Below, piece by piece: positions 1-58,406 of a stretch of DNA of 64,000 nt. A program made the translations under genes and the position numbers. The notes beneath the pieces were generated by a model. The model saw only the letters and a list, made by a program, of their open reading frames with translations. It had not been told where the DNA came from and did not search any database. Origin of the DNA: Candidatus Tayloriibacteriota bacterium (GTDB lineage Bacteria > Patescibacteriota > Minisyncoccia > Phycocordibacterales > PALSA-1337); NCBI GenBank assembly GCA_037129895.1, contig JBAXUB010000005.1:597-64596 (forward strand), given 5' to 3'. Position 1 is the stretch's first letter. The number at the start of each line of letters is the position of its first letter.

Positions 1-15
1 TACGGATCAATAACG

Positions 16-3000
16 ATGACTTCATCTGGTTTTGCTGTATTTGTAAGTGGATCCGCAAGTTTAACTATCAATAATGGTACCAATACGGCTATTGATCAGA
101 ACACCTCCAGTGGACAGGCTGTACGATGGGGTTCAACGGGGACCCTGTCTATTACTGGTAACATTGTAGGCGCCAGTGGAACGGGATATGCTATTCGTTT
201 TACAACAGCACCTGCATCAGCAACTATAAATGGAAACATAACTTATGGAGGGACATCGTCAAACTTCATTGATCTTTCTGGAAGTACCCTCACTATCAAC
301 GGCTCAGTTACTAATTCTTCATCAGGGAGTACGCTGGCTCCTGGTTTAGGTACTATTATTATAAACGGTTCAGTCACCAATTCTTCTACAGGTAAAGGTG
401 TATATGTGACTGGCTCTGCAAATCTCACAATCGCTAATGGTACTGACACAGCCATAGATGTAAATTCTTCAAGCGGAGTAACTAGTGCAGGTGTGTATTG
501 GTCATCAACGGGAACATTATCTATTACCGGCAATATTATTGGTGCTTCCGGAACTGGCGTTGCTATAAATATTTTGACAGCACCGACACTGGCTTCGGTA
601 ACTGGCAACGTTATATATGGAAGCACAGGGCAGGGTCTGATTAGGGCAGGTGCAGGTGGCTTAACTATCAACGGCTCAATCACTAATACATCTTCAGGTC
701 GCGCAATCAGTGTCAGTGGTTCGGCTAACCTAACTGTCTCTAACGGTACCAACACAGCCATCGATGAGAATACGTCAAGTGGATATGGTATATACTGGGA
801 TTCAACAGGAACTTTATCCATTACAGGAAACATAGTTGGAGCAAGTGGTACAGGAACTGCTCTTTATATCCGCACGGCACCAACGTCAGCAAGTTTAACT
901 GGTAGTGTTAACTATGGAAGTACAAATACAAGTGGCTTGGTTCAAATTAACACCGGCTCTTTAGTGGTTAGCGGTGATATTTCAAAAACATCATCGGGAT
1001 ATGCTATTGGTATGCAGACTTCAGGTAATCTGATTATTTCCAGTGGTACTATAACGGGGACCTCAGTTTTTCTTTCAGGGATTGGTTCACTGACTATAAA
1101 CGGTGGTGCGGTCACGCTAGGAAATGCAAACACCTATACGGGAGGAACCATATTGAATGCGGGTAGCCTTACAATCGGCAAAAGCAGCACTGGTGCAGCA
1201 GGAAATGTTACTAATGGACCGGTAGGTACGAGTACGCTGACGCTGAACGGAGGAACTTTAAACTCGAGCGGCAACTATACGGTGAACAATGGAATCCTAA
1301 TAGCAGGTTCTACTAATGTTGGAGGGATAAACTCACTGACTCTTGGGGGAGCAATATCTGTAGGTGATAATATTTTGAATGTAACTAATACCGCTGGAAC
1401 AATAACCCTGAATGGTCCAATCAGTGGAACTGGAGGAATTACACTCTCTGGTACTGGCACATTGACACTTGGAGTAGATTATACTGCTGGCCCGATTTTA
1501 ATAACTGATACCACTGCGATTGCTAAAACATTTGCCGGAGGCGGACATTCATTCGGCAACCTTACCGTTTCTGGAGATAATGTTATTATTACCGGCAATA
1601 ATACTATTAGCACGTTGGCGGTCAATACCGCGGGACTTACTAATGGACTTAAGCTGGCAAGCGGTTCTACACAAACTATTTCGAATCTTACGACCAATGG
1701 ATCTGCAGGAAATCTTGCTAAACTAGTTGCCTCCACAACAGGTAGTACAGCAACTCTTTCTAAATCAAGTGGTTTAATTTCTGTTGATTATATGTCAATT
1801 AAAGACTCTACCGCTAACGGAGGGGCCTCGTGGAATGCAGGTGTTAATAGTGTAAATGTTTCAGGTAATTCAGGATGGTTATTTTCATTACCCCCTTCAA
1901 ATTTGACAGTATCGACTGACCTTCCAAGTTTGGTTTCAACGTCAACAATGATATTAAATGGTTCTATTACAGTCGACGGTACTGCTTCATCGACCCTACG
2001 AGGATTCGCTTGGGGTACATCATCTAATCTTACGACTGGTACAGCCACTACAACAGAGAGCGGCACTTTCGGCGTTTCTTCATTTTCCACTTCAACTATT
2101 GTATTTATCCCAAATACGACTTACTATTTTCGCGCATACGCGGGAAGTTCACAGGGAACAACAACTGGTTCAATTCTTTCCACAACAACGCTTCCTTGGA
2201 ACGTGCCTGATGCGCCTACTATTGGCACAGTTGCGACATCTTCTCCAAATAAGGCTACGATTCCTTTTACTCCTGCAGGAAATGGCGGTTCCCCTGTTCT
2301 CTATTATTTAGCATCTTCAACCCCAGGGAATATTATGGCGACGAGTACCGTCTCACCTATTACCGTCAGTGGACTCACAAATGGTACCTCGTACACTTTT
2401 AAAGTTTATGCAGTGAATGCTGTAGGTACTAGTACTCCTAGCTCTGTTTCAAATGCTGTTATACCAAATGCTTCTTACGCTCGAAGTACATGGCGGACTG
2501 AAGAAGGTGCGACAGTAGGACCTCAGGTTGTGACAAACGGCTCATTTGCAGATAGTACGGGTTGGATTATACCCACAGGCGGTTCAATCAGTGGTGGGAA
2601 AGCAACATGGACACAAAGTGGATCTTTCCGACAAAATGTAACACTTGACACTGATTCTTATTATGAATTTATCTATACTGTCTCTGACTATACTTATGGA
2701 GCTATTCATGTTCAAGGGTGGAACGAAAGATCTGCTGATAGATATGGTCCAGGAACATTTAGAGATATTATATATTTTCCGACCGGATCATCCATGTTTC
2801 TTATCAATGGGTCAGATACATTTTCAGGGTCTGTTTCTTACATTTCTGTTCGTAAGATAACACCAGGAATTGCCAACTGGAATCCTAGAGTTGTGGCAAT
2901 TACAGGTGACTCAATTGCACAACATCAGGCAGTAATGAATCCCGATACATATCCTGGCAATACTACTTATGGATTTTCTCTCGCACAGGACGGAATTACT

Positions 3001-5592
3001 CCCGTTGACTGCGCCTTGGGAAATACAACCTTTGCTTGGGCTCTGTCGACCGGAATTCCATGCGCGATAGCTACCGGTGCCAGGACTATCATTATTCACG
3101 ATGGTATTAATGACATAGTGCAAGGCAGAACTTGGGACCAGGCACTTTCTGATCTAAACGCAATCCGTGCATTAGTTACGACACAAGATTTATTTGTAGA
3201 TGAAATTCTACCCAGAACGACTGGTAATGATGCGCAGGCAGCCACTATTCGAACATGGAACGCAAATCTGGATGCCTGGTCTGCAGCCAATAACGCACAT
3301 TTTATCCGTAGCCACGATATTATGGGCAAAATCAGAGCATCGACTGGACTACTGGACGACCTTGGTTTCGACACTGCGGATGGTGTGCATCCGGCTACTG
3401 GTGGTAGCTATGTCCTATGGCATTTGTGGTTCGATGCTCTGGAAGCTGTTTATGGATATCCTATCAAAACAACGTGGACAGTCACTGCTAGTACTGGAAC
3501 AGGCGGATCGATCAGTCCTGCTGGAGTTACGAATATTGGAGAGGGAACGGATCAAACGTTTATAGTGACTCCAAGTGACTCATATACAGCAGAAGATATT
3601 CTAGTTGATGGAGTAAGTGTAGGTACGACTTCATTATCGTATACATTTACAAATGTTATAGCGGATCATACGATTGATGTTAGCTTTCAATCTCAAAATA
3701 GTATTCCGGCATCCCCTGTATCAATCTCCGCAGCCACTTCCACCTCCGGTCAAGCCACTGTCTCTTTCACTCCAAGCTCCAATGGCGGTTCTGCCATCCT
3801 TTACTATTTAGCTTCCTCAACTCCAGGAAACTTCACTGCCACATCGACAGGATCTCCCATCGTTGTCGCTGGTCTTACTAACGGTACCTCATATACCTTT
3901 GCTGTGTATGCTGTGAATGCTTTAGGAACCAGCACATCTTCAAGTGATTCAAATGCAGTGGTACCGATCGGTCTTCCTACTGCCCCAACAGACGTAACAG
4001 CTACAGCAGGCAACACTCAAGTAGTTATCAATTTCAGTGCCCCAGGTTCAAATGGCGGCAGTGCCATTACCGGATATACCGTGACATCGAGTCCTTCTGG
4101 AGGCATTGATACAAATGCTGGCGGAACTGCGCTTACGCATACCGTCACAAGTCTTACTAACGGTATCTCGTACACCTTTACTGTAACTGCAACAAACGTG
4201 GTTGGTACAGGAAGTGCTTCAAGTCCTTCATCTTCAGTCACTCCTTCAACTGTTGCTGCCGTTTCAACAAACGTGGTTACTAGTATAGCTTCTACTAGCG
4301 CCACCGTGAGTGGTTCGATCACTTCAACGGGTGGGTCTGACGCAAGCCAGCATGGCTTTGCATACGGCACTGTTGCTAACCTCTCAACCGTGACTGCAAC
4401 TACCACTCTAGGGTCTCAAACTGGTACAGGCACGTTCACAAGCTTTGTGACTGGTCTAACAGCCAATACCACATACTATGTCCGTGCCTATGCTGTAAAT
4501 GCCTCAGGTACAACAACTGGTTCAATCATTTCCTTCCTAACTCTTCCTGCTATTCCGACTGTGACCACACAAGCTCCGACAGCTGGCTCAGGCATATACT
4601 TCACTGCTAACGGCAATATCACTGCAACTGCCGTGAACGCTACTGTTCGAGGTTTCGTCTACGGCACTACGAATACATACGGAGCGACAACTACGGAGAA
4701 TGGTTCATTCACTACAGGCGCATATACTGCCACGATTTCTGGTCTTGCTTGTAACACGCTATATCATGTCAAGTCCTATGCATTAAATACCGGAGGTACT
4801 GGCTATGGTTCTGATCAGACTATTACAACTGATGTTTGTACCAAACCAACAGTTGCCACTTCTACTCCTACAGGAATCACTACAACTGGAGCTACCTTGA
4901 ATGGTTCTATCACAGCCGACAACAATGCTTCATCTACAGTTGAAGGTTTCAATTGGGGTAATGATACGAATTATGGCCAGACGGCTTCGACAAATGGTAC
5001 ATTCGGCACTGGCTCATTCTCACAGACATTAAGCGGTCTAACATGCAACGCCACATATCACTACCAAGTTTTTGCTACAAATTATGCGGGCCAAGGCACT
5101 TCGGGTGACGAGATATTCAGCACATCAGCATGTTCTGTAACTCCTACACCTGCGGTACAAAGTTCTAGTTCAGGTGGAGGAGGAAGTGCTTCAAGCCGAG
5201 TCAACAATCTGATAGCAATGGGTAATTACACACTAGCGCAACAGATAGCTAAACAATTTGGAATCATAATCCTGACCCAGTCTTTGCTAAAAGAAAATTT
5301 GCCAGTTTCGAAATCGTCGCAAACATTTACAAAAACTTTGAAACTTGGAATGACTAATAGTGATGTAAAAAGATTACAAATATTCTTAAATACGCAAGGC
5401 TTCATTGTTGCAAAGCAAGGTGCCGGTTCTCTCGGACATGAGACAATGTATTTCGGACAGGCTACGAAAGCTGCTCTGAAGAAGTTTCAGTTAGCCTACA
5501 GGAAGGAAATACTTGATCCGCAGGGATTGAAGAGTCCGACGGGGCTGTTTGCATCAGGCTCTATGAAAGTTGCAAATGGACTATTAAAATAA
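16..5592 (+). CDS. Giant (1858 aa) surface protein with repeated beta-strand adhesin-like repeats, fibronectin-III-like repeats, an embedded SGNH/GDSL-hydrolase-like segment and a C-terminal peptidoglycan-binding domain. The 5' end may be incomplete.
   Basis: The ORF is uninterrupted and carries ANTYTGGT-type beta-strand repeats. Repeated YAVNA.GTS FN3-like units follow. An ITGDSIA ... DGVHP segment near 2880-3480 resembles an SGNH esterase. The C-terminus has a PG_binding_1-like stretch (TNSDVKRLQIFLNTQGF...ATKAALKKFQ). An in-frame stop sits 3 nt upstream of the ATG at 16, and there is no signal peptide at this start. Confidence 0.7.
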   Translation: MTSSGFAVFVSGSASLTINNGTNTAIDQNTSSGQAVRWGSTGTLSITGNIVGASGTGYAIRFTTAPASATINGNITYGGTSSNFIDLSGSTLTINGSVTNSSSGSTLAPGLGTIIINGSVTNSSTGKGVYVTGSANLTIANGTDTAIDVNSSSGVTSAGVYWSSTGTLSITGNIIGASGTGVAINILTAPTLASVTGNVIYGSTGQGLIRAGAGGLTINGSITNTSSGRAISVSGSANLTVSNGTNTAIDENTSSGYGIYWDSTGTLSITGNIVGASGTGTALYIRTAPTSASLTGSVNYGSTNTSGLVQINTGSLVVSGDISKTSSGYAIGMQTSGNLIISSGTITGTSVFLSGIGSLTINGGAVTLGNANTYTGGTILNAGSLTIGKSSTGAAGNVTNGPVGTSTLTLNGGTLNSSGNYTVNNGILIAGSTNVGGINSLTLGGAISVGDNILNVTNTAGTITLNGPISGTGGITLSGTGTLTLGVDYTAGPILITDTTAIAKTFAGGGHSFGNLTVSGDNVIITGNNTISTLAVNTAGLTNGLKLASGSTQTISNLTTNGSAGNLAKLVASTTGSTATLSKSSGLISVDYMSIKDSTANGGASWNAGVNSVNVSGNSGWLFSLPPSNLTVSTDLPSLVSTSTMILNGSITVDGTASSTLRGFAWGTSSNLTTGTATTTESGTFGVSSFSTSTIVFIPNTTYYFRAYAGSSQGTTTGSILSTTTLPWNVPDAPTIGTVATSSPNKATIPFTPAGNGGSPVLYYLASSTPGNIMATSTVSPITVSGLTNGTSYTFKVYAVNAVGTSTPSSVSNAVIPNASYARSTWRTEEGATVGPQVVTNGSFADSTGWIIPTGGSISGGKATWTQSGSFRQNVTLDTDSYYEFIYTVSDYTYGAIHVQGWNERSADRYGPGTFRDIIYFPTGSSMFLINGSDTFSGSVSYISVRKITPGIANWNPRVVAITGDSIAQHQAVMNPDTYPGNTTYGFSLAQDGITPVDCALGNTTFAWALSTGIPCAIATGARTIIIHDGINDIVQGRTWDQALSDLNAIRALVTTQDLFVDEILPRTTGNDAQAATIRTWNANLDAWSAANNAHFIRSHDIMGKIRASTGLLDDLGFDTADGVHPATGGSYVLWHLWFDALEAVYGYPIKTTWTVTASTGTGGSISPAGVTNIGEGTDQTFIVTPSDSYTAEDILVDGVSVGTTSLSYTFTNVIADHTIDVSFQSQNSIPASPVSISAATSTSGQATVSFTPSSNGGSAILYYLASSTPGNFTATSTGSPIVVAGLTNGTSYTFAVYAVNALGTSTSSSDSNAVVPIGLPTAPTDVTATAGNTQVVINFSAPGSNGGSAITGYTVTSSPSGGIDTNAGGTALTHTVTSLTNGISYTFTVTATNVVGTGSASSPSSSVTPSTVAAVSTNVVTSIASTSATVSGSITSTGGSDASQHGFAYGTVANLSTVTATTTLGSQTGTGTFTSFVTGLTANTTYYVRAYAVNASGTTTGSIISFLTLPAIPTVTTQAPTAGSGIYFTANGNITATAVNATVRGFVYGTTNTYGATTTENGSFTTGAYTATISGLACNTLYHVKSYALNTGGTGYGSDQTITTDVCTKPTVATSTPTGITTTGATLNGSITADNNASSTVEGFNWGNDTNYGQTASTNGTFGTGSFSQTLSGLTCNATYHYQVFATNYAGQGTSGDEIFSTSACSVTPTPAVQSSSSGGGGSASSRVNNLIAMGNYTLAQQIAKQFGIIILTQSLLKENLPVSKSSQTFTKTLKLGMTNSDVKRLQIFLNTQGFIVAKQGAGSLGHETMYFGQATKAALKKFQLAYRKEILDPQGLKSPTGLFASGSMKVANGLLK

Positions 5593-5597
5593 CAGCT

Positions 5598-6167
5598 ATG
5601 AACGATGACCAATCTCAAGATACACCAGTAACAGCTGAAATAGCCCAGACTCCAGAAATACCCACTTCTAACCAACCGACAGCATCGGAACCTGCCGATA
5701 TGCCCCCAGAGGCCCCAGAATTGCCCACAAACGCTTCAACAAACGTTCCTGTAGAAAGTCAAAATGGAGCAGTAAATACGTCAGAAAGCGAGGTGCCAGA
5801 ATCATCAAATGAGGCTCCAATTCCAGAACCTGTCCAGCCAGTTCCAACGGAATCTGCGCCGTCCGCGCCGGCGCCAGTGACACCGCCAGTACCACAACGC
5901 CAATCGCCGGCGCAACAAGATCAAACCGGATTCATCCGCGCACTGTTAGCGAAAGCTCAAGCTAAAATCCAGTCAAACAAACAGAAGAAGTTCGACAAGA
6001 TCATTTTATTCGCACAGAAAAAGAAAATCGTAGCCAATGAAGACATTCAACTTCTTTTGCATGTCTCAAGTGCTACTGCGACGAGATATTTGGTCAAATT
6101 AGTTCAGCAAGATCATCTATATCGCGTAGGGAATCCACGCGATGCTAAATATCAATTCCTACGTTAA
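5598..6167 (+). CDS. Small protein with an acidic Pro-rich N-terminus and a C-terminal winged-helix-like domain. It is a paralog of 57444..57971.
   Basis: It starts 5 nt after the giant gene stop. The C-terminal ~70 aa (ATATRYLVKLV...PRDAKYQ) is conserved with the protein at 57444..57971. Confidence 0.6.
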   Translation: MNDDQSQDTPVTAEIAQTPEIPTSNQPTASEPADMPPEAPELPTNASTNVPVESQNGAVNTSESEVPESSNEAPIPEPVQPVPTESAPSAPAPVTPPVPQRQSPAQQDQTGFIRALLAKAQAKIQSNKQKKFDKIILFAQKKKIVANEDIQLLLHVSSATATRYLVKLVQQDHLYRVGNPRDAKYQFLR

Positions 6168-6174
6168 AAATGTC

Positions 6175-6203
6175 TGTGGCTCATATCCACCAATTGAGCC
6201 ACA
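6175..6203. repeat. Small palindromic hairpin element (TGTGGCTCA-N11-TGAGCCACA), copy 1 of 3
   Basis: It has a perfect 9-bp stem. Related copies lie at 6430..6458 and 57980..58008. Confidence 0.6.
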
Positions 6204-6233
6204 TGTGTTTCTGATTTATCACTACGCTCCGCC

Positions 6234-6406
6234 GAGAAGCGGCCGACTTCCGCTTCTCTCACTAACAGTTGTTCGCATCCAGAGGATGTCTGTATGGCGG
6301 AGCACTCCACGGTTGCGATTAGCAACGGTGGAAAGTGCGAGAGCCATTCGGACATCCGATGGGTGCGCCATGAACTCAATCAGAAGCGGAAGTGGGCCGC
6401 TTCGAA
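6234..6406. repeat. ~175-bp intergenic repeat (family C) with hairpins at both ends, copy 1 of 3
   Basis: It begins with GAGAAGCGGxCGAC..CGCTTCTCTCAC and ends with GAAGCGGAAGTGGGCCGCTTCGA. Copy 51521..51695 is homologous along the whole length, and copy 58018..58162 shares the termini. Confidence 0.6.
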
Positions 6407-6429
6407 CCGCGCGATTGTGATAGAATGGT

Positions 6430-6458
6430 TGTGGCTCAAATGGTGGAATTGAGCCACA
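6430..6458. repeat. Palindromic hairpin element, copy 2 (identical to 57980..58008)
   Basis: TTGTGGCTCAAATGGTGGAATTGAGCCACA occurs at both places. Confidence 0.6.
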
Positions 6459-6509
6459 TCGAACCCGCCCCCAAAAACCACATTCCACCGCACGACCAAA
6501 ACAAATAGT

Positions 6510-6559
6510 GAGGGCGGACGGAGTCCTTCCCCCACACCCCCAGTCCTCCGTCCGCCCTC
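6510..6559. repeat. GC-rich hairpin with a 14-bp perfect stem (GAGGGCGGACGGAG / CTCCGTCCGCCCTC) and a C-rich loop (CCCCCACACCCCC)
   Basis: The inverted repeat was read directly. The loop motif recurs in reverse complement in the repeat B hairpin at 52004..52048. Confidence 0.5.
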
Positions 6560-6754
6560 TCCACCTTTTTGTGATTTCAAAGAAAACAGCGTCGCGCAGC
6601 GACTCCGTATTTCATTCACAGAGAAGTCACGCATCAGGATTTTCAGCGAAATAAGTTCGAACTTCAAGTAAAAACTGCCGCAAAAAAAATGAGCGAGCTT
6701 GCGAGCGAATGTTTTTTGCGTGAGAGAGCGACGCGACTGCTCGCGTCGCGTGAA

Positions 6755-6855
6755 GGGATTCGAAGAGGTTCTCCCATATTTTCGAGACCCCGAAGCTTTA
6801 GCGGAGGGGTAGAGAAAATGGGAAACCTGTACTGAAGCTGTAAGCTTCGAATCCC
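6755..6855. repeat. ~100-nt imperfect long inverted repeat (GGGATTCGAAG ... CTTCGAATCCC) with nested inner stems. It may be a structured RNA or a DNA element.
   Basis: The outer arms are 11 bp and perfect. The inner arms (ggttctcccatattttc / gagaaaatgggaaacc) are complementary but imperfect. Confidence 0.4.
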
Positions 6856-6871
6856 TTCCTCTCCGCAAAAG

Positions 6872-6886
6872 TTGCCAAATTGGCAA
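6872..6886. promoter_or_regulatory. Perfect 15-bp palindrome TTGCCAAATTGGCAA upstream of the wHTH gene, a candidate operator (copy 1)
   Basis: An identical palindrome sits at 11792..11806 in the duplicated cassette. It is followed by a second palindrome ATACCGCAGAA.(A/C)TGC(A/G)GTAT. Confidence 0.4.
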
Positions 6887-6960
6887 GATTCAACCTTTAG
6901 AAAATACCGCAGAACCGTGCAGTATTTCGTTTTCCACTCACATAGTGATTCCTGCTCAAG

Positions 6961-7278
6961 ATGCTGAAAGTTGTCGTGTGTGGCAAACCAAGTAAACAGA
7001 TGTCCACACCTTTCGTACCACAGGTGGTACGTTATACTACGTACCTTTCTATGCCCCAATTATTGCAACCCCTTGAACCAAATGATACAGAGAAGGCCGT
7101 CATCCACAAAGTGTGTATGGGGCTGATAAAGTACTTTAGCACTCCCGAAGGAGTAGAGGTGGGGAATAGTCAAGGTGAGCTCAGGTGTGGCGAAAGAGGG
7201 TATGGTGTTATGAGGATTCATAAAAAACAGCACAGAGGGTTTTCCTCTGCGCCGATGTGCTGCCAACGTCGAATTTAA
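6961..7278 (+). CDS. Divergent copy of a small LexA-N-terminal-like wHTH protein. It may be degenerate.
   Basis: Its C-terminal third is homologous to 11866..12186, but the N-terminal part is unrelated at DNA level. Its 3' end overlaps the hairpin terminator of the convergent small gene. Confidence 0.3.
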   Translation: MLKVVVCGKPSKQMSTPFVPQVVRYTTYLSMPQLLQPLEPNDTEKAVIHKVCMGLIKYFSTPEGVEVGNSQGELRCGERGYGVMRIHKKQHRGFSSAPMCCQRRI

Positions 7279-7288
7279 TCGCAAACAC

Positions 7289-7450
7289 TCATGTGATTAG
7301 TAGTTGAACTGCTGCTTTGACAAGTAACAGTGCTACGGCCGCCGTCATAAGACCAATGATGATGCCAACTTTCTGTCCTCGGTCAAATGCATGTTGGCGA
7401 TTGAGTAATTCCTGGCTATCGCCAGCGGTTTGAATGCAGTTATCTTCCAT
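7289..7450 (-). CDS. Small 53-aa protein with a C-terminal transmembrane helix (MEDNCIQTAGDSQELLNRQHAFDRGQKVGIIIGLMTAAVALLLVKAAVQLLIT). It is a paralog of 12440..12613.
   Basis: Translated by hand. It falls below the 60-aa ORF-track cutoff. The two copies differ mostly by conservative substitutions. A hairpin plus T-run terminator follows on the minus strand at ~7225-7250. Confidence 0.5.
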   Translation of the reverse strand: MEDNCIQTAGDSQELLNRQHAFDRGQKVGIIIGLMTAAVALLLVKAAVQLLIT

Positions 7451-7581
7451 AAGTACTCCAAGTTGTTAATGTTGCTGTGGATTCTGTCCTCTAACTATAT
7501 ATTACGCGCTTTATACGTTAACGCAAGAACACAACAGGCTGTTGTAATCTTTGTGAGTTTGTGCGATACTTGACAAATCAC

Positions 7582-7653
7582 CGCGGGGTAGGGTAATGGT
7601 AACCCACGAGGCTCATAACCTCGGATATGTCGGTTCGACTCCGGCCCCCGCAA
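7582..7653 (+). tRNA. Initiator tRNA-fMet (anticodon CAT)
   Basis: It was folded by eye into a cloverleaf with a TTCGACT T-loop and a CTCATAA anticodon loop. It has a C1:A72 mismatch, and its termini (CGCGGGG...CCGGCCCCCGCAAC) closely match E. coli initiator tRNA. CCA is not encoded. Confidence 0.8.
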
Positions 7654-7715
7654 CAAGTATTGACTTTTCTAATAAATCATGTAACTGTATAGCCAGAAAA
7701 TCTTTGACAATCTAT

Positions 7716-8063
7716 ATGGATAAAAACATGAACACAACAAGGCAATTCCAACGCACAATCGAAGATTTCGTGTGCGAAAACTGCGATCTGCAGGTAAAAG
7801 GCAACGGTTACACTAACCACTGCCCTCGATGTTTATGGAGTAAACACGTTGACATCAATCCTGGCGACCGCATGGCAAAGTGTGGCGGAATGATGGAACC
7901 TATTGCCATCGAATCAAAAGATGGCGGGTATATCATCGTTCATCGGTGTGTAAAATGCGGATACGAGAAAAGGAATAAAAAGTCGGAGGAAGATAACTTC
8001 GAAGCTATTCTTAAACTCTCTAGCCGTCCTCTGCAATCAACAATTAACAAGAAAGGAAAATAG
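7716..8063 (+). CDS. RNHCP-domain zinc-ribbon protein (~115 aa)
   Basis: It contains a YTNHCPRC motif plus several CxxC pairs. The ORF-track start at 7596 would overlap the tRNA, so the start was moved to the internal ATG at 7716. Confidence 0.55.
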   Translation: MDKNMNTTRQFQRTIEDFVCENCDLQVKGNGYTNHCPRCLWSKHVDINPGDRMAKCGGMMEPIAIESKDGGYIIVHRCVKCGYEKRNKKSEEDNFEAILKLSSRPLQSTINKKGK

Positions 8064-8067
8064 CCTC

Positions 8068-9480
8068 GTGAAAACGAATCTATCAAATGAATCATGGTCG
8101 CCTGTTGCGACTGTGCATTGCAATTATCGTTCACAAGGAAGGCGTGAGGACGGTAAATACGTTCTTCACGATGCCATTCCACACCTCTGTCATATCGAAT
8201 TGACATATGCGTGCAACGAGAAGTGCATCTTCTGTTACAATCCCGAACGAGCAAAACTGGGCGATCTATCAACGATTGATCAGCTTGTTCGTTCCATCGC
8301 GGTGAGTCAGATACCGCATGTATATCTGATAGGTGGCGAGCCAAGCTTACTGCCTGTCGAGAAGCTCAACGAATATATTGATCTTCTCTCTCCTTCCTCA
8401 TCCGTTACGATCGTAACTAATGGCCTAAAGCGGCTAGATGGTATCTCGAGCAAGCTCGCTTGTTTCGGAGTTCCGATTCATGGGGCGAATGCCAAAACCC
8501 ATGAATTTCTCAATCAGTCGCCAGGTAGTTTTGAGAAAACACTTGAAACAATCAGGTGTTATGTGGGCGAAGGTCATGATGTGCGATGCATACCAGTTCT
8601 CACTGGTTATAATCATGACCAGATGTATGACATCATCGGCATTGCGGCAGGTCTCGGTATGGAGTCGATTTACATCGACCGTTATGAAGATGGAGGTATT
8701 GGCGCGGTCAACTCCCGCGGTTATACTTTGAAGCCGACAAGCGAGCAGTTTCATATTGCTGTAGGACAAATTGTCCAGGCCAAGCACGATTTTGCCGTCT
8801 TTGATGGAAAGGTCGGGTTCGGTACAGCTATTCCGTACTGCTTGGATGAACGGATGATCATCGAGGGTATCACATCAAATTGCGGAGTTGGTACATACTT
8901 CTGCGCGATTAACCCCAAGGGTGAATTTCGAATGTGCAATCAGTCGCAACTTGTTTTTGGTAATGTCATGAAAGAGCCAATCGAGACGATCTGGAACAAG
9001 CCAGCACTCGATATCTTCCGTGATCTATCCTGGGTCGGCGAGCCGTGTAAATCGTGCGAATTATTGCTTGACTGTACGGGCGGCTGCAAAGTTGACTCGA
9101 ACTGTTCAGACAGATTCTGTATCGACTATGCGGTTCGCGGACTTTCCAAGCCTGTCGCTGAATTGGTAACAAAGGTCAAGCATTGTCAGTTGGCTGAAGG
9201 ATACCCGGAAAGTTACCGAAACTTTCGACCAAACAGATACATGAAACTTACAACACGTTACCCTGAGAAATTCCTGGTTACGCGGTATCAGACGGTAAAA
9301 CTGGATGAGATGGCACTGGAAATGGCTCAGGTCATTATCAGTGAAGCATTGATTGGTGAACGTGAGCTAATCGCTCGGTTTTCTAAATCAGTCGAGGAAC
9401 ATGAAATACGGTTATTCGTGAGCAAGATGCTTCAAGTGAATGCTCTTGATCTCGTGAAGGAGGTGCAACATGCAACTTAG
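8068..9480 (+). CDS. Radical SAM protein with a C-terminal SPASM/twitch-like Cys-rich domain
   Basis: It has a CNEKCIFC (CX3CX2C) motif, a GGEPS glycine-rich motif, and C-terminal cysteines (CGVGTYFC...CKSCELLLDCTGGC). The ORF track begins it at a GTG start. Confidence 0.75.
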   Translation: MKTNLSNESWSPVATVHCNYRSQGRREDGKYVLHDAIPHLCHIELTYACNEKCIFCYNPERAKLGDLSTIDQLVRSIAVSQIPHVYLIGGEPSLLPVEKLNEYIDLLSPSSSVTIVTNGLKRLDGISSKLACFGVPIHGANAKTHEFLNQSPGSFEKTLETIRCYVGEGHDVRCIPVLTGYNHDQMYDIIGIAAGLGMESIYIDRYEDGGIGAVNSRGYTLKPTSEQFHIAVGQIVQAKHDFAVFDGKVGFGTAIPYCLDERMIIEGITSNCGVGTYFCAINPKGEFRMCNQSQLVFGNVMKEPIETIWNKPALDIFRDLSWVGEPCKSCELLLDCTGGCKVDSNCSDRFCIDYAVRGLSKPVAELVTKVKHCQLAEGYPESYRNFRPNRYMKLTTRYPEKFLVTRYQTVKLDEMALEMAQVIISEALIGERELIARFSKSVEEHEIRLFVSKMLQVNALDLVKEVQHAT

Positions 9481-10957
9481 TGAAATTCATTGGGAAATCA
9501 CCAACATGTGTAATCTGGGGTGCAAACACTGTCTGCCGATGTCTGGTCGTGCACGAGAAAATGAACTTACGACCGAGGAAGCAATGGTTGCTTTGGTGGC
9601 ATTCCAAGCCGCAGGAGCTTCTAGAATCTGCTTAACCGGTGGAGAACCATTCAGTCGCTCAGACATCCTTGATTTGCTTGAAAGATCATTTGCGTTGGGG
9701 TTGAAGTCATCTGTAATAACCAATGCTACATTGCTCCCAAAGGCAACCTTGGAAACGATTAAACGCTTGGGCGTTGATCTTGGAATCAGTCTCGATGGTG
9801 CAGACCAAGCAACCAATGACGCCATTCGTGGTGATGGAAGCTACAAATGTATCATTGAGACTCTCATACAATGCCGGGCGTTGGGCATTTCAACAACTCT
9901 CTACGTCACGGTTTCAGCAATCAACATCGAACATCTGAATGCGTTCGCCAAGCTCGCAGTCGAGTATGGTTGTAATAGTATTCATTTCAACGAGATAACT
10001 ATTTCCGGTCGTGCCTATCATTTTTCGGATGAACTTAAACTCTCCGAAGATCAGAAAAAGCATTTGCCAGAAATGGTTGTCAAAATAGCCTCCGATATAT
10101 TCGGGGAAATTCTCTCTGATGCAGACGAGCATTGCTGGGTCGATGGTGTGACACTCAACATGACGGCCGACGGAAACCTCTATGTTTGCAGTGAAGTTTT
10201 CCAACGCCGGCCCGATCTTGCAATCGGCAATATTAGATCGTTTGTGTTCGAAACATTGTTGGAGCAAACCGCTTCGGCTTATTCTGGACATGAATATAAA
10301 TGTTGCTACAGTGTGTGTGCGAGCAAACATGTGATATTTGTCGGAAACATAGCCACTGGGTGTGCGTTTGCAAAGCAGAAACCATTCATCGAAACTCTTC
10401 CGCAACTATACGACGTTCTCGGTGAACTTTATCCGAGGATGGAGCTGGATTGCCGTGAATGTTCTGATCCTGATTGTATGGGTTATGTGTGGCTACTCAA
10501 AAAAGAAGCTGCACATCTGTACGAACAAGGTGTTCCGCTTGTTCAAGTGAATAATGGGCCAACCTTTATTCATTCGTTTCCCGTGACTGCGCAAGGGGTG
10601 CCCGATTTATCAATTCGGTATCCTCCATGCAGTCAGTTGTGTACAGACAGTAGAAGATGTAGTATCTACAAAGATCGTCCTTTGGCATGTCGTCTTTACC
10701 CGCTTGGGCTTGAGACAGAAGCAGACGGAACGATTGTATGGGCACTACATCTGGATTGTCTGCATGTTCGAAGACTGGAAGAGCGCGGTTTGCTTCCAGA
10801 ACTCGAATGTCGTGTTCTGAAAATCATCGACGAGATTTCGCCGAAATTGTTGGAAGAAATAGTCGAGACTTATCGCGCAGTCGATGCGATTTCTTCTTTC
10901 CCTGACGGTGATAACAAGTACAAACCCCTACGAAAGGTGAGTTATGTCAAAATGTAA
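9470..10957 (+). CDS. Radical SAM/SPASM protein with a C-terminal YkgJ-like Cys-rich extension
   Basis: It has CNLGCKHC (CX3CX2C) 12 aa from the N-terminus and a GGEPF motif. Mid-region cysteines are present. The C-terminus has CRECSDPDC...CSQLC...CSIYKDRPLACRLYP, which resembles the PF03692 CxxCxxCC zinc/iron-chelating domain. It overlaps the upstream rSAM gene by 11 nt. Confidence 0.75.
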   Translation: MQLSEIHWEITNMCNLGCKHCLPMSGRARENELTTEEAMVALVAFQAAGASRICLTGGEPFSRSDILDLLERSFALGLKSSVITNATLLPKATLETIKRLGVDLGISLDGADQATNDAIRGDGSYKCIIETLIQCRALGISTTLYVTVSAINIEHLNAFAKLAVEYGCNSIHFNEITISGRAYHFSDELKLSEDQKKHLPEMVVKIASDIFGEILSDADEHCWVDGVTLNMTADGNLYVCSEVFQRRPDLAIGNIRSFVFETLLEQTASAYSGHEYKCCYSVCASKHVIFVGNIATGCAFAKQKPFIETLPQLYDVLGELYPRMELDCRECSDPDCMGYVWLLKKEAAHLYEQGVPLVQVNNGPTFIHSFPVTAQGVPDLSIRYPPCSQLCTDSRRCSIYKDRPLACRLYPLGLETEADGTIVWALHLDCLHVRRLEERGLLPELECRVLKIIDEISPKLLEEIVETYRAVDAISSFPDGDNKYKPLRKVSYVKM

Positions 10958-11099
10958 AGCAGTTCTTGACGGTGACAAGATCACCGAAATCTGTGTCAAG
11001 ACAAAACCGGTCAAGAAAGCTGAGAAACGAGAGTTGAAAGATTCGAATGTTGTCGAAGCAAAACCGACCGATTCGTCCCGGCAACAGACTGGAACATAG
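10944..11099 (+). CDS. 51-aa Lys-rich peptide with 2 Cys (MSKCKAVLDGDKITEICVKTKPVKKAEKRELKDSNVVEAKPTDSSRQQTGT). It may be a precursor or partner peptide of the rSAM pair.
   Basis: Translated by hand. Its ATG overlaps the 3' end of the rSAM gene by 14 nt. It is followed directly by a rho-independent terminator and falls below the ORF-track cutoff. Confidence 0.35.
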   Translation: MSKCKAVLDGDKITEICVKTKPVKKAEKRELKDSNVVEAKPTDSSRQQTGT

Positions 11100-11123
11100 A
11101 TGTGACAGATCTTGTGTTCACGA

Positions 11124-11152
11124 GTGGCATTCATAGGAGTGCCACTTTTTTA
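11124..11152 (+). terminator. Rho-independent terminator (GTGGCA-loop-TGCCAC + T6)
   Basis: A hairpin followed by TTTTTT was read directly from the sequence. Confidence 0.6.
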
Positions 11153-11181
11153 TTATCCAAATAAGTTATACTATAGACAAC

Positions 11182-11739: not shown

Positions 11740-11791
11740 TCAATAGACGATTTAATTCCATTCGGACATCGTCCCAAGCTCCCCGCAAAAA

Positions 11792-11806: not shown

Positions 11807-11865
11807 GATTCAACCTCTAGAAAATACCGCAGAATCATGCGGTATTTTCGTTTTCCATTCAAATA

Positions 11866-49808: not shown

Positions 49809-49879
49809 TTGCGGGATCGGCTAATGGTAGGCCACATCCCTCTGGAGGATGTTATCTTGGTTCGAGTCCAAGTCCCGCA
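49809..49879 (+). tRNA. tRNA-Gln (anticodon CTG)
   Basis: It was folded by eye. The acceptor stem is TGCGGGA/TCCCGCA, the D stem GGCT/GGCC, the anticodon stem CATCC/GGATG with loop CTCTGGA, the T arm CTTGG-TTCGAGT-CCAAG, and the discriminator G. CCA is not encoded. Confidence 0.75.
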
Positions 49880-51434
49880 GCAATTTCGCAAAAATCGCAG
49901 AATCGCCCGAAAAAGGCGAAAGAATCGCAGAATATGGAGGGCGGGGCGGAATTCCCCCCTGAAACCCCCCTTCCGCCCCGCCCGCATCTTTGCTCACGTT
50001 TTTGGGAATTTTCGTGACGAAAGCAAAAGGAAAATGCGGAGAAAAAATGAGGGTGCGGTTGAGGACGAGTGGGTTCGAACCGACTTTTTCAAAGAATGAT
50101 CGAATTTTCGTAGTATCTGTACTCTCTGCCAAAATAGAGGCTTCCTTGCAGTCTTTTAGGAAGTTAATCACTGGTTCGAACCGATCGTTAGAAACTTTAC
50201 CGAAAGCAGTAATTTTGTCCTTCAAAACCTGCTTTTCGGTTACAAGTTTGTTTTTGGTTGTCTGGTATTCTTCAAGAGTTAGGGCATTGCCAAGGTATGC
50301 AGTCATGAGTTTTTCTAGTTTAGCGTTAATGGCTAGTGCCTCATCACTTACTTTCTGAATCTGATTTTTCGAAGAGTCATCGTCCTTAGCTCGATCTTTC
50401 TCAACCTCTGCAATTAGCCAGTTTGCCACTTCATCAGAAAGTGATACTTTTTTTAGCTCCTCCTGAATGAGTGTTGTCATAGCTTCCTCACGAACGTATT
50501 TTTGTGAACATGGGCCTTTGTGCTTTGTACACCTCAAATAGTTATGACCCTTCTGGGTTTCAATCGTAAGGCAACAGCCACATTCAGCGCACTTGAACAG
50601 TCCGCGATACACATACGGCTTGAGATCACCGTCATGTTGGGGTTTGCTTTTTTTGGTCATAACTTCCTGGCATATATCAAAAATTTTCTTGGTGATGATT
50701 GGCTCATGCTTACCTTCGTAAAATTCACCATGAAAAAGTATGAGTCCGTGGTACAAATTATTTTTGAGTAGATACTGGTAGTTGGAAATAGAAAGTTCCT
50801 TGCCCTTGTGCCCAGTCAATCCAAGCTCGCCCATACTTTTACGGAGGGCTGATAGAGTATAATTTCCTGTAGCGTAAGTTTCAAAAGCTTTCTTGATGAA
50901 TGGTGCTTTTTCGGGATCAACAACTATCAATTTAGTTTTCTTGTCATTGAGGTAACCGATTGGAGCTTTCTGTGGCCAGATTCCATTCTTCAATTTTTGT
51001 TTGTAACTACGCTTTACATTTTCAGACAGATTGTCCACATAATATTTTGACTGCGAAAAAGAAATGGAAAGCATAAATTTTCCTTGGGGTGTTGCATCAA
51101 ACCAGAAAGTTGGAAATTTTAGGTCGGTGATAACACCGGTGTCCACCATATAAATAATTTTGCCACCATCCACCGAGTTACGAGCGAGCCTATCAGGATG
51201 CCATGCCAAAATGCCAGAGGCTTCTCTGGCTTCTATACGCTCCAACATCTCCGCAAATACAGGCCTACCAGGAGTTTTGGCAGTTTGTTTCTCGATGAAG
51301 ATGTCTACAACCTCCAATTGCTCCTTTTTGGCGAGCTCGCGTAGCTCGGAGAGCTGGTCGGCAAGAGATCTCACTTGCCGATCCTCGGTGTCGGTAGATT
51401 TTCTGGTATATATAAAATATTTTTTCTCACTCAT
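49821..51434 (-). CDS. Large serine recombinase (resolvase/invertase catalytic domain + recombinase domain + zinc ribbon)
   Basis: It has N-terminal YTRKSTDTEDRQVRSLADQ (catalytic Ser), the recombinase domain, and CAECGCC...CTKHKGPC. The 3' ~60 codons run through the left IR and over tRNA-Gln on the opposite strand, so the true stop is uncertain. Confidence 0.75.
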   Translation of the reverse strand: MSEKKYFIYTRKSTDTEDRQVRSLADQLSELRELAKKEQLEVVDIFIEKQTAKTPGRPVFAEMLERIEAREASGILAWHPDRLARNSVDGGKIIYMVDTGVITDLKFPTFWFDATPQGKFMLSISFSQSKYYVDNLSENVKRSYKQKLKNGIWPQKAPIGYLNDKKTKLIVVDPEKAPFIKKAFETYATGNYTLSALRKSMGELGLTGHKGKELSISNYQYLLKNNLYHGLILFHGEFYEGKHEPIITKKIFDICQEVMTKKSKPQHDGDLKPYVYRGLFKCAECGCCLTIETQKGHNYLRCTKHKGPCSQKYVREEAMTTLIQEELKKVSLSDEVANWLIAEVEKDRAKDDDSSKNQIQKVSDEALAINAKLEKLMTAYLGNALTLEEYQTTKNKLVTEKQVLKDKITAFGKVSNDRFEPVINFLKDCKEASILAESTDTTKIRSFFEKVGSNPLVLNRTLIFSPHFPFAFVTKIPKNVSKDAGGAEGGFQGGIPPRPPYSAILSPFSGDSAIFAKLLRDLDSNQDNILQRDVAYH

Positions 51435-51945
51435 GTTTGTATTTTACCAAATTTTTCAGAAAGCAAGAAATATTTTTTACATAAATCAGTGCATAAACAG
51501 TTAACAACTAAGCTCTCATCGAGAAGCGGTCGACTTTCGCTTCTTCTCACAGTAGTTTCTTCACGTCTCGCACATATCTGTATGGCGGACGCGCCCCACG
51601 ATTGCCCTAGCAACGGTGGGAAGCGCGGGAGCCGTTCTGGTATGTGCGTATGGCGTGCCACGAGACTCTGTAGAAGCGGAAGTGGGCCGCTTCGAGTCAC
51701 TGTGGTGTGTGTTTGTGTTTAAAAATAAAAAGTAAAAGAAGGTGAGTACCCATCTGGTCCTCAACCGCACCCTCATTTTTTCTCCGCATTTTCCTTTTGC
51801 ATTTGTAACGAAAATTCCCAAAAACGTGAGCAAAGATGCGGGCGGGGCGGAAGGGGGGTTTCAGGGGGGAATTCCGCCCCGCCCTCCATATTCTGCGATT
51901 CTTTCGCCTTTTTCGGGCGATTCTGCGATTTTTGCGAAATTGCTG
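49877..51945. mobile_element. IS-like element. A large serine recombinase gene is bounded by ~180-bp terminal inverted repeats (49877..50057 and 51757..51945). It is inserted at the 3' end of tRNA-Gln.
   Basis: The two ends are near-identical in inverted orientation. The left IR starts inside the tRNA 3' end (CAGCAA), and the right IR ends with TTGCTG. The IR carries an internal GC hairpin at 49936..49984. Confidence 0.6.
51521..51695. repeat. Family C intergenic repeat, copy 2
   Basis: It is homologous to 6234..6406 along its whole length and shares the terminal hairpins. Confidence 0.6.
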
Positions 51946-52150
51946 TCGTTTTTGAATGAAGTTCGAACGTTTTTCGCTGAAAATCCTCAAAATTAAGGAA
52001 GTCAGGCGGCACGGCAGGAGGGGTGTGGGGAGGAATGCCGTGCCGCCTTCCTACTGTTTTCTTTCTTTTTTTTCCGTCATGCACCTTGTGGAGCTCGGAC
52101 GATGCGGAACTCTTGTGTGGGGCGAGCTGTTTCCGCACGTCCTCGCGGGG
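51939..52150. repeat. ~210-bp repeat B, copy 1. It contains the hairpin AGGCGGCACGGCA-loop(GGAGGGGTGTGGGGAGGAA)-TGCCGTGCCGCCT at 52004..52048.
   Basis: The reverse-complement copy lies at 58197..58406, with only a few mismatches (~95% identity). Confidence 0.65.
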
Positions 52151-52236: not shown

Positions 52237-57390
<5,154 letters not shown>

Positions 57391-57443: not shown

Positions 57444-57971
57444 ATGTCAGATGATCAAAACCAAGATATAAATCCACAACAAGAGCCACCACAAAGCCCT
57501 GAAGCAGTCACAGATGAAGCACCTATTCAGCAAGCCGATTCTATACCTACCGATATGCCCCCTGTGGCCCCAGAAGCCCCTAAGGACGCTTCTACCTCTG
57601 TTCCTGTAGAAGATCAAAATGGAGCAAATAAGGATGAAAATCAAGTATCAGAATCTCCAGCTGTGACCGCGCCAGCGCCACTAACCTCGGCTACTCCACA
57701 AACGCAATCGCTGGCGCAACAAGATGAACGTGGATTCATCAAGAGCTTGCTTATTAAAGCTCAAGCTAAAATACAATTTAACAAACAAAGAAAGTTAGAA
57801 AAAATCATTCAGCTAGCACAAAAGAAAGGAATAATTACAAATGATGATGTACAAAAACTTTTGCATGTCTCTGATGCAACTGCAACCAGATATTTAGTAA
57901 AATTAGTAGAACAAGGTCGTCTGACTCGCTTAGGTTCACCACGCGATGCTAAATATCAAATTGTACGATAA
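57444..57971 (+). CDS. Small Pro-rich protein with a C-terminal winged-helix-like domain, paralog of 5598..6167
   Basis: It has the same architecture and a conserved C-terminus (ATATRYLVKLVEQGRLTRLGSPRDAKYQ). Confidence 0.6.
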   Translation: MSDDQNQDINPQQEPPQSPEAVTDEAPIQQADSIPTDMPPVAPEAPKDASTSVPVEDQNGANKDENQVSESPAVTAPAPLTSATPQTQSLAQQDERGFIKSLLIKAQAKIQFNKQRKLEKIIQLAQKKGIITNDDVQKLLHVSDATATRYLVKLVEQGRLTRLGSPRDAKYQIVR

Positions 57972-57979
57972 AATAGTCT

Positions 57980-58008
57980 TGTGGCTCAAATGGTGGAATT
58001 GAGCCACA
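57980..58008. repeat. Palindromic hairpin element, copy 3
   Basis: Identical to 6430..6458. Confidence 0.6.
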
Positions 58009-58017
58009 GAGGTTCTC

Positions 58018-58162
58018 GAGAAGCGGTCGACTTTCGCTTCTTCTCACTGAAATCTATTCGTGTTCGGAGGAAGTCGGTTCGGCGATTAGCCGTACGGACT
58101 GACGACGAATGCGCCACTAAACTATATGGAAGCGGAAGTGGACCGCTTCGAATGATTTGATG
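58018..58162. repeat. Family C intergenic repeat, copy 3 (termini conserved, interior divergent)
   Basis: GAGAAGCGGTCGACTTTCGCTTCTTCTCAC ... GGAAGCGGAAGTGGACCGCTTCGAA. Confidence 0.55.
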
Positions 58163-58196
58163 AAATACGTTTTGAAATATTTTGAACCCCGCGAGG

Positions 58197-58406
58197 ACGG
58201 TGCGGAAACCTTTTGCCCCACACAATAGTTCCGCATCGTCCGAGCTCCACAAGGGCATGACGGAAAAAAAAGAAAGAAAACAGTAGGAAGGCGGCACGGC
58301 ATTCCTCCCCACACCCCTCCTGCCGTGCCGCCTGACTTCCTTAATTTTGAGGATTTTCAGCGAAAAACGTTCGAACTTCATTCAAAAACGACAGCAAGAT
58401 TTTTTT
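58197..58406. repeat. Repeat B, copy 2, in inverted orientation
   Basis: It is the reverse complement of 51939..52150. It ends with the same ...AAAAACGACAGCAA junction that abuts the right IR of the recombinase element. Confidence 0.65.

Follow-up and report, generated by a model that had tools for sequence, protein, structure and literature searches.

Several described systems come close to the locus that is the subject of this study. Ccr large serine recombinases move the elements of the staphylococcal cassette chromosome (SCC) family, including SCCmec, and the tycheposons of Prochlorococcus are tRNA-targeted integrative islands with modular cargo. Palindromic, rod-like repeat elements are represented by Correia elements, other miniature inverted-repeat transposable elements (MITEs) and repetitive extragenic palindromic (REP)-type repeats, and slipped-strand phase variation of surface proteins occurs in Neisseria, Haemophilus, Campylobacter and Mycoplasma. 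The DNA analyzed here, referred to as the window, is a stretch of 64,000 nucleotides from a Candidatus Tayloriibacteriota bacterium (assembly GCA_037129895.1, contig JBAXUB010000005.1, positions 597 to 64,596), which carries at either end a module composed of a gene for a giant secreted protein and a gene for a small winged-helix protein. We consider it probable that these modules are two copies of a recombinase-linked cassette family of Taylorbacteria/Paceibacteria, which carries phase-variable surface proteins.

All four open reading frames (ORFs) of the two modules were re-found on the + strand (16..5592 and 5598..6167 in module 1, 52237..57390 and 57444..57971 in module 2; further features in Table 1). 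The spacing between the giant and the small gene is 5 nt in module 1 (5592 to 5598) and 53 nt in module 2 (57390 to 57444). The two small proteins are related to each other (56% identity, E 5e-64), and the giants have FN3-like/beta-sandwich blocks in common (54% over 195 aa and 66% over 94 aa), including the block ILYYLASSTPGN...YTF.VYAVNAVGTSTPS which had been quoted in the original prediction. Outside these common blocks, giant1 and giant2 are not colinear. Both modules are also followed by common elements, as had been claimed, namely a hairpin (H), an element termed E, and a GC hairpin (C) with a terminal motif (T). Three features go beyond the earlier observations: a large serine recombinase, inverted repeats around module 2 and a (CA)18 dinucleotide repeat. 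For comparison, 30 loci were fetched via the small protein; with the duplicates L028 and L029 counted once, 29 of them are distinct. L-numbers denote loci, W1 and W2 the window modules 1 and 2, and L031 is an ENA contig from the same population as the window.

Each cassette is bounded by inverted repeats of ~65-215 nt, each of which holds a C hairpin and a T motif. In cassette 2 these repeats lie at 51940-52138 and 58200-58397 and comprise 143 nt at 100% identity (58255-58397) plus 55 nt at 91%. The GC hairpin and terminal motif of its right end (58290-58397) have their equivalent in cassette 1 at 6510-6683, and the inverted C-T copy that belongs to giant1, in L031, is 91% identical to window positions 6464-6689. 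Inverted C-T copies were found upstream of the cargo in W1 (via L031), W2, L005, L009, L010, L015, L020, L026, L039, L044 and L046, at varying distances: ~90-130 nt upstream of the giant start codon in the four cassettes measured (W2, L031/giant1, L005 and L039), and ~180 nt upstream of the first cargo ORF in L009. The two C-T copies of one cassette are closer to each other than to copies elsewhere, and several genomes contain two divergent cassette copies, each with its own matched inverted-repeat pair. C itself is a hairpin of 12-14 GC-rich base pairs with a covarying stem and a conserved C-rich loop of 19-22 nt (..CCCCCACACCCCC..), preceded by an A-run and often followed by a T-run. The T motif reads GGATTTTCAGCGAAAAAnGTTCGAACTTCAAGTAAAAACTGCCGCAA, and all its copies diverge sharply after ...GCAA. 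Its core, GTTCGAAC, is a perfect palindrome that occurs 71 times in 609 kb, several-fold over chance, and the motif as a whole resembles the T-loop and acceptor end of a tRNA.

The content of the cassettes is highly variable, and defense genes are common in it. The gene directly upstream of the small gene is usually unrelated from locus to locus, both flanks vary, and a giant occupies this position in L005, L015, L021 and perhaps L030 among the 29 distinct loci. Other cargo includes an OLD/Gabija-like ATPase with type III restriction-modification (R-M) in L010, a cyclase with E2 resembling those of cyclic-oligonucleotide-based antiphage signaling systems (CBASS) together with a C5 methylase in L020, HTH_3-M78 in L009, hydrolases and methyltransferases in L026, and methylases with a ResIII/Z1 helicase in L046; upstream of the small gene in L047 and L048 are apparently core genes. 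Two loci show further irregularities at their cassette ends. In L015, both T tips are closely flanked on the outside by a 15-nt direct repeat, ACGAAC(G/A)AAGTGAGT (~5390-5430 and 10925-10945), and the right flank goes on with the first bases of another T tip; this suggests either a duplicated target or what is left of a tandem cassette. In L008, the segment between two adjacent cassettes (8127-8490) holds a T tip, half an A hairpin (see below), ~170 nt of unrelated sequence and half a C hairpin, which look like decayed remnants with breakpoints in the hairpin loops, and the next cassette (to 11644) ends in E-H-C-T without a small gene.

Cassette 2 is preceded by the recombinase, which lies in a repeat-bounded unit of its own. 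The protein matches the phrog_95 integrase (2.5e-77), and its best NCBIfam matches, CcrB (102 bits vs a 900-bit cut-off) and XisF, stay far below cut-off; the window and L046 recombinases share 72% identity, and their C-terminal stretches, encoded by the A repeat, align without indels. The full order of elements is A, recombinase (on the opposite strand), E, a', inverted T, inverted C, cargo, small gene, H, E, C and T, and the layout of the recombinase unit recurs in six genomes (window, L005, L009, L035, L039 and L046), which differ in their cargo. Within every recombinase gene, the palindrome GGTTCGAACC occurs twice, 101 nt apart (50073-50082 and 50174-50183 in the window; likewise in L005, L009, L028, L035 and L046). 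Repeat a has its inner edge at the first of these copies, and the core of the palindrome is that of the T-motif center, resembling a tRNA T-loop.

In two loci, the outer end of the recombinase unit adjoins the 3' end of a tRNA gene, and the junctions can be read to the nucleotide (a slash marks the junction). In the window, tRNA-Gln runs as ...CCCGCAGCAA/TTTCGCAAAAATCGC, i.e. ...GCAGCAA/TTTCGC, and the T tip of the same genome ends in ...CGACAGCAA/, i.e. ...ACAGCAA/. In L046, the tRNA runs as ...CTCTCCGCAA/TTTCGCAAGAAACGC, i.e. ...TCCGCAA/TTTCGC, and the T tip ends in ...CTGCCGCA/, i.e. ...GCCGCA/. In both cases, the T tip agrees with the last 6-7 nt of the tRNA from its own genome, with the shared cores CAGCAA in the window and CCGCA in L046. 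These two junctions are what a tip-to-tip recombination of cassette, recombinase unit and tRNA 3' end would produce, and the order tRNA/A-recombinase-E-a'/T-cargo-small-H-E-C-T/flank corresponds to the exact product expected of two such events. The recombinase ORF of both loci continues across A and runs antisense into the tRNA gene: its last ~20 codons overlap tRNA-Gln in the window (49821-49881), and in L046 the recombinase spans 1519-3105 and the tRNA 1468-1555. Since the ORF crosses the presumed attachment junction, integration could change the C-terminus of the recombinase. Another tRNA-Gln, found 2.9 kb upstream of the small gene in L007, is a different isoacceptor with unrelated flanks and was set aside.

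This arrangement shares much with SCC elements, in particular the large serine recombinase, the discrete cassettes with highly variable cargo, some of them without a recombinase, the inverted repeats and short target-shared sequence at the ends, the apparent use of a conserved gene's 3' end as insertion site, and the ability of cassettes to adjoin one another (here in L008). It differs from them in its putative target, a tRNA 3' end or tRNA-like tip instead of rlmH, in the single recombinase whose ORF extends across the junction, in the inverted repeats of ~200 nt, in the constant winged-helix gene and rod-like element at one end, and in the host, a Candidatus Taylorbacteria member of the candidate phyla radiation (CPR), whose cassettes are putatively mobile. 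With tRNA-targeted islands, be it the tycheposons or classical tRNA-linked islands, it has in common the junction exactly at the tRNA 3' end, an element end that mimics the 3' half of a tRNA, variable cargo and some cargo-only units; unlike in those islands, the tRNA junction is seen in two loci, the ends are inverted instead of direct, and the recombinase occupies its own repeat-bounded unit. An integron was rejected because the recombinase is of the serine type and the cassette ends are, upon inspection, unlike attC. No tyrosine-recombinase family appeared among the Pfam matches of the neighboring ORFs scanned, and a diversity-generating retroelement, a kind of element common in CPR, was considered as well, with no reverse-transcriptase family among the Pfam matches of the scanned window ORFs.

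The giant genes carried by some of these cassettes display a second mode of variation. Giant1 is cut by the window edge, and the ATG at position 16 is internal; the complete gene lies in L031 (505-6534) and encodes 2009 aa. Its 5' 151 codons, which are outside the window, encode MKSYDAINERERERVESPS... followed by a signal peptide and contain a (GA)9 leader. As proposed earlier, giant1 has a PG_binding_1 domain, here found together with three fn3 domains; for the SGNH esterase-like segment, the Lipase_GDSL_2 match (27 bits) falls below the cut-off in giant1 and rises above it in the L005 orthologue (34 bits). The LamG domains expected in giant2 were recovered with Laminin_G_3 (108 bits, 3 stretches) alongside fn3. 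The parallel beta-helix claimed for this protein is backed only indirectly: residues ~773-880 match the lacto-N-biosidase LnbX (E 4.7e-13). LnbX is a GH136 beta-helix glycosidase.

Dinucleotide tracts of at least six units occur four times in 461 kb (window and loci), every one of them in the 5' leader of a giant: (CA)18 in giant2, (GA)9 in giant1 (L031 529-546), (GA)9 in L005 and (GA)7 in L015. A metagenome scan for ATGCGATTMAC(GA)>=5 returned 11 further leaders. One leader, ATGCGATTAAC(GA)nGTAGAAGC, is common to giants with different bodies, some of which have giant2-like LamG N-termini (L041 and L042). The number of repeats across 14 leader copies is 7, 7, 7, 8, 9, 9, 9, 10, 12, 13, 13, 14, 14 and 16. 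Nine distinct genes have an ATG in frame with the giant ORF; four others (L015=L044, L036, L041 and L042) lack one, and their frame is closed by a stop codon a short way upstream. One gene is represented by both L035 and L036, from different assemblies, which are 99.8% identical over 1994 nt and one GA unit apart: in silico, (GA)14 places the ATG in frame (ON) and (GA)13 out of frame (OFF). In their sequences, the giant genes appear as contingency loci based on simple sequence repeats (SSRs), with a 5' repeat, length polymorphism and a frame switch, and slipped-strand mispairing would then lead to stochastic ON/OFF expression of giant host-interaction proteins. The SSR contingency loci of Neisseria, Haemophilus, Campylobacter and Mycoplasma likewise place a hypermutable repeat ahead of the signal peptide, within the 5' coding leader of a surface-protein gene; there, too, the repeat number differs between near-identical copies, and the reading frame flips between ON and OFF. 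Here, by contrast, the units are dinucleotides, (GA)n or (CA)n, in Taylorbacteria giants of 1100-2300 aa, one leader serves different giant bodies, and the switching is predicted from sequence.

The most constant part of the cassettes lies downstream of the small gene. According to blastn of the downstream DNA and motif maps, the order small-H-E-(H)-C-T is kept in nearly all loci examined, with H beginning 7-9 nt past the small-gene stop in 29 loci and 29-37 nt past it in five. This array, rather than a giant, is the constant companion of the small gene (34 of 36 loci). H is a hairpin of the form GTGGCTCAA-loop-TTGAGCCAC with the loop in either orientation. E forms a rod, 132-188 nt long, that comes in three size classes and has the ends GAGAAGCGGyCGACTTyCGCTTCT and GAAGCGGAAGTGGGCCGCTTCGA. 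An RNAalifold consensus of 26 E copies has 38 pairs, with 95.7% of cells paired and compensatory changes at 15 pairs; none of 500 shuffles was as good, and slid controls reached 34-42% paired. In module 1, H-E-H folds into a 284-nt rod (-164 kcal/mol, z = -14.1) whose E (6231-6408) matches the covariance model at 141.6 bits; the fold of H and E in module 2 has z = -6.5. The covariance model found 39 sites in 552 kb, every one in the orientation of the small gene; most are downstream of a small gene, seven lie upstream of the recombinase or its remnant (L026), and one ends a cassette without a small gene (L008). The array also tracks the subtype of the small protein: small1-type proteins come with H-E-H, in which the second H is inverted and follows E, and small2-type proteins mostly with H and a short E, L004 being an exception.

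Against Rfam 15, the non-coding arrays yielded two tRNAs as the sole matches to reach the gathering score, leaving H, E and C-T unmatched, and at E<=10 chance miRNA-like hairpins were the only additions. Like Correia elements, MITEs and REP-type repeats, E is a near-palindrome with terminal inverted repeats and size classes set by an internal segment; unlike them, it is not dispersed, has a fixed orientation, is tied to the small gene or the recombinase, and has covarying stems. ORFs of 121-168 aa called on the array (6380-6886(-), 51773-52138(-) and 57986-58381(-)) are almost certainly spurious; the two that were scanned, 6380-6886 and 57986-58381, have no Pfam match.

The small ORFs, which might have been non-coding, are real conserved genes, with 421 relatives in a word-indexed search and at least 735 clusters (50% identity) at E<=1e-10 in an exhaustive profile search, or 1929 at E<=1e-3. 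The best 150 representatives of the profile search are 75-275 aa long and match one profile. In close relatives the C-terminal ~85 residues are almost invariant, and the acidic Pro-rich N-terminus is still alignable. The predicted C-terminal winged helix was supported by modeling: AlphaFold2, run with the alignment of relatives, gives residues 1-89 as disordered, a long helix (90-128) that leads into a helix-turn-helix, and then a two-strand wing with nothing after it, at pLDDT >90 in the folded part. Foldseek matches this part to the winged helices of MarR, ArsR and Z-alpha over ~62 residues at low rmsd. Profile matches are marginal (AbiEi_4, HTH_DeoR, DUF977 and the C-terminal winged helix of Fic-type defense proteins): small2 barely exceeds the Pfam cut-offs of AbiEi_4 (26.5 bits), HTH_DeoR, HTH_24 and DUF977, small1 exceeds none, and PADLOC reports AbiEi at 18 bits.

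Two specific assignments were rejected. For the MarR family, the scores are 18-23 bits vs a cut-off of 24.6, and the flanking dimerization helices are missing, with one long helix before the winged helix; for AbiE toxin-antitoxin systems, the winged-helix part alone matches, and there is no AbiEii neighbor. The protein thus shares the helix-turn-helix and beta-hairpin wing with winged-helix regulators (MarR, DeoR, the N-terminal domain of AbiEi, DUF977) and differs from them in lacking the MarR dimerization helices, the DeoR effector domain and an AbiEii partner, and in its acidic disordered N-terminus of ~90 aa. Judging from the model, it is a generic winged-helix nucleic-acid binder with an acidic tail, outside the characterized regulator families. 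PHROGs returned nothing beyond a generic 'DNA binding protein' match, and because no relative was found in the viral contig collection, the small gene is not an obvious phage gene.

Taken together, a cassette would consist of a constant 3' part (small gene, H, E and C-T) and an exchangeable 5' cargo of giants, R-M, CBASS-like or other accessory genes. The recombinase may join tip sequences, i.e. the T tip, the A tip and the tRNA 3' end, and thereby integrate, excise or shuffle cassettes; those without a recombinase could be fossils or depend on one supplied in trans. The small protein may act as the cassette's own DNA-binding factor, most likely on the palindromic H and/or E near the cassette end, and such putative binding would regulate expression or recombination. 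Neither serine-recombinase islands nor phase variation driven by repeats is a new kind of system. What is new is that the two occur together in a CPR lineage, that the inverted ends are long and have tRNA-like tips, that the recombinase lies in a separate unit with repeat boundaries of its own, and that a winged-helix gene is constantly accompanied by a rod that Rfam does not match. Full-text searches of the literature on Patescibacteria serine recombinases with inverted repeats and on CPR phase variation turned up no description of such a system; one Gracilibacteria paper deals with a different hypervariable repeat gene. As a tentative extension, the locus may exemplify an undescribed, modular CPR cassette system driven by a serine recombinase, in which circularizable cassettes and a separate recombinase unit are joined via palindromic tRNA-like tips to each other or to tRNA 3' ends, the winged-helix protein and rod E form a control module, and phase-variable adhesins and defense systems are distributed among episymbionts.

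Several observations weigh against the cassette interpretation. Roughly half of the loci with at least 6 kb of upstream sequence have no inverted C-T copy, and for this reason the small gene can also sit in an ordinary chromosomal context, e.g. after GrpB in L048. Cassette ends adjoin a tRNA in two loci only (window and L046). Neither excised circles nor empty target sites nor alternative junctions were seen, the alternative assemblies breaking at the repeats, and no locus examined has the head-to-head T/T or a'/A joints that would mark a circular form. Large serine recombinases are not known to depend on inverted repeats of ~200 nt. Rod E could be an RNA in the 3' UTR (untranslated region) of the small gene, with no role in recombination, and the ON/OFF calls presume ATG starts and correct assembly of the repeats. 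Exact-protein look-ups with small1, small2, the recombinase, the LAGLIDADG neighbor, the NYN gene and ORF 59669-60583 led back to the same population or to nothing, with no alternative junctions.

Some of these points are shared by the explanation that fares best among the alternatives, which we nevertheless regard as unlikely: that the small gene is an ordinary, lineage-wide chromosomal gene for a nucleoid-associated protein or transcription factor, that H-E-C-T is its 3' UTR, terminator or a linked small RNA, and that its varied neighbors reflect an integration hot spot and dispersed repeats. The breadth of the family (735 clusters at 50% identity, all small proteins), its absence from viral contigs, and the loci with core-looking neighbors only and no inverted copy (L003/L047 and L048) would fit, as would L009 and L026, which share a right flank (tRNA-His) and differ in cargo. 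The U-G pairs of E likewise favor folding of the small-gene strand, as for a 3' UTR, in a signal that is dominated by one column. However, several genomes carry the two divergent copies with matched repeat pairs described above, neither flank is constant from genome to genome, the recombinase unit has E and the T tip as well although no small gene is close by, and homology ends sharply, with a T tip that matches the tRNA end of its own genome.

The original prediction saw the two genes as a fixed operon whose small winged-helix product is devoted to regulating or anchoring a giant adhesin or enzyme, and this now seems quite improbable. The pairing itself is real in related genomes and one-sided. 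All seven giants that have a repeat leader and whose 3' end can be seen (W1, W2, L005, L015, L040, L041 and L043) precede a small gene, and the short gaps in the window and the winged-helix fold suit a dedicated regulator. In the reverse direction, a giant stands directly upstream in 3-4 of the 29 distinct loci; most small-gene loci carry unrelated cargo there, including R-M and CBASS-like genes, and the small gene is most tightly linked to the non-coding array on its 3' side. An absence of the pairing from related genomes, named at the outset as refuting the prediction, is thus half observed. With neither a signal peptide nor a membrane segment, the small protein is unlikely to serve as an anchor.

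That the recombinase serves as an inversion switch, flipping the giant and small genes of a cassette or its own unit as a phase-variation device, is very improbable: the perfect 143-nt inverted repeats around cassette 2, those of 192 nt (98%) around the adjacent recombinase gene, a T core whose perfect palindrome would leave the sites without polarity, and a recombinase ORF whose 3' end is part of the repeat, so that inversion leaves it whole, would all suit such a switch, but the six recombinase-linked loci (a small sample, assemblies only) have one relative orientation throughout, no flipped junction occurs in other assemblies, many cassettes have no recombinase nearby, and orientation should not alter expression, since the cassettes hold complete genes with their own 5' ends and C hairpins with T-runs face inward at both ends.

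Table 1. Coordinates of the cassette, recombinase-unit and tRNA features in the window (a slash marks a junction or tip).
Feature	Position	Strand	Description
Giant1	1..5592	+	3' 1858 codons of 2009-aa secreted multidomain protein; fn3, GDSL_2, PG_binding_1
Small1	5598..6167	+	189 aa; acidic Pro-rich disordered N-terminus, C-terminal winged helix
Hairpin H copies, TTGTGGCTCAAATGGTGGAATTGAGCCACA	6174, 6429, 57979		From window repeat comparison
H-E-H rod	6174..6458	+	H 6174-6203, long-class E 6231-6408, H 6429-6458
C hairpin, module 1	6510..6559	+	14-bp GC stem, conserved loop TCCTTCCCCCACACCCCCAGTC
T motif, right tip of cassette 1	6636..6683	+	...GTTCGAACTTCAAGTAAAAACTGCCGCAA/; inverted partner outside window, L031 179-401
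tRNA-Gln(CTG)	49810..49881	+	3' end ...CCCGCAGCAA meets repeat A at 49883/49884
Large serine recombinase	49821..51434	-	537 aa; Resolvase PF00239, Recombinase PF07508, Zn_ribbon_recom PF13408
Repeat a (A arm)	49878..50069	.	Left inverted repeat of recombinase unit, 192 nt, 98%; second GC hairpin with C-rich loop
E, recombinase-proximal, long class	51518..51698	+	Covariance-model match 123.8 bits
Repeat a'	51754..51945	.	Inverted copy of recombinase 3' end and A arm; meets inverted T at 51939/51940
Cassette 2 left boundary	51940..52150	-	Inverted T 51940-51987, inverted C hairpin 52005-52047
Giant2	52237..57390	+	1717-aa secreted protein: LamG x3, fn3, lacto-N-biosidase-like segment, CarboxypepD_reg-like C-terminus
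(CA)18 dinucleotide repeat	52269-52304	+	Giant2 5' leader; encodes (TH)6 upstream of signal peptide
Small2	57444..57971	+	175 aa; architecture as small1
H and short-class E	57979..58154	+	H 57979-58008, E 58015-58154; covariance-model match 139.7 bits
Cassette 2 right boundary	58187..58397	+	C 58290-58332, T 58350-58397; tip ...CGACAGCAA/GATTTTTTT

The remainder of the window contains further features of possible interest. Right of cassette 2 are an NYN-domain gene (58883-59416(-)) and a Bro-N/anti-repressor-like gene (61194-62066(-); phrog_8036, 2.3e-71), which hint at more mobile-element content past the T tip. A LAGLIDADG/WhiA-like ORF (49100-49801) lies immediately upstream of tRNA-Gln, beside the recombinase unit. 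Downstream of cassette 1, a direct repeat of ~700-900 nt (6852-7545 and 11772-12708; non-coding or small-ORF, 86-91% identity) brackets tRNA-Met (7582-7654), radical-SAM/SPASM genes (8068-9480 and 9470-10957) and GrpB (11182-11739), and a membrane-type ORF of ~53 aa lies on the - strand inside its first copy (~7297-7458). The region 6852-12708 could be a cluster for a RiPP-like product (ribosomally synthesized and post-translationally modified peptide) or a segmental rearrangement; a GrpB gene is also found directly upstream of the small-protein homologue in L048. Terminator-like hairpins at 20428-20466 and 23211-23249 (AAAACACCCCG...CGGGGTGTTTT, 90%) bracket an 887-aa ORF (20544-23207) without a Pfam match. 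In the CTP synthase PyrG (45563-47419, 618 aa), the glutamine amidotransferase domain extends over ~275 residues vs a 190-position profile, which suggests an ~85-aa insertion in that domain.

CPR/Patescibacteria are mostly uncultured episymbionts, and the surface variation involved in host contact, as well as gene exchange among them, is poorly known. In the cassettes described here, one repeat-bounded frame carries adhesin-like giants or R-M and CBASS-like defense genes, often beside a large serine recombinase. With its shared frame, variable cargo and recombinase, it is therefore a candidate vehicle for the flux of accessory genes in reduced genomes. The broad small-protein family (at least 735 clusters) and the covarying rod E, which is unmatched in Rfam, add two uncharacterized parts. 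On a practical level, the contigs L031, L034 and L040 all end in cassette repeats; these repeats break metagenome assemblies, and recognizing them should help genome curation. The (GA)14/(GA)13 ON/OFF pair is sequence-level evidence for giant surface proteins of CPR bacteria as contingency genes, and, if the proposed cassette system is real, it would be a serine-recombinase analogue of the integron or SCC platform.

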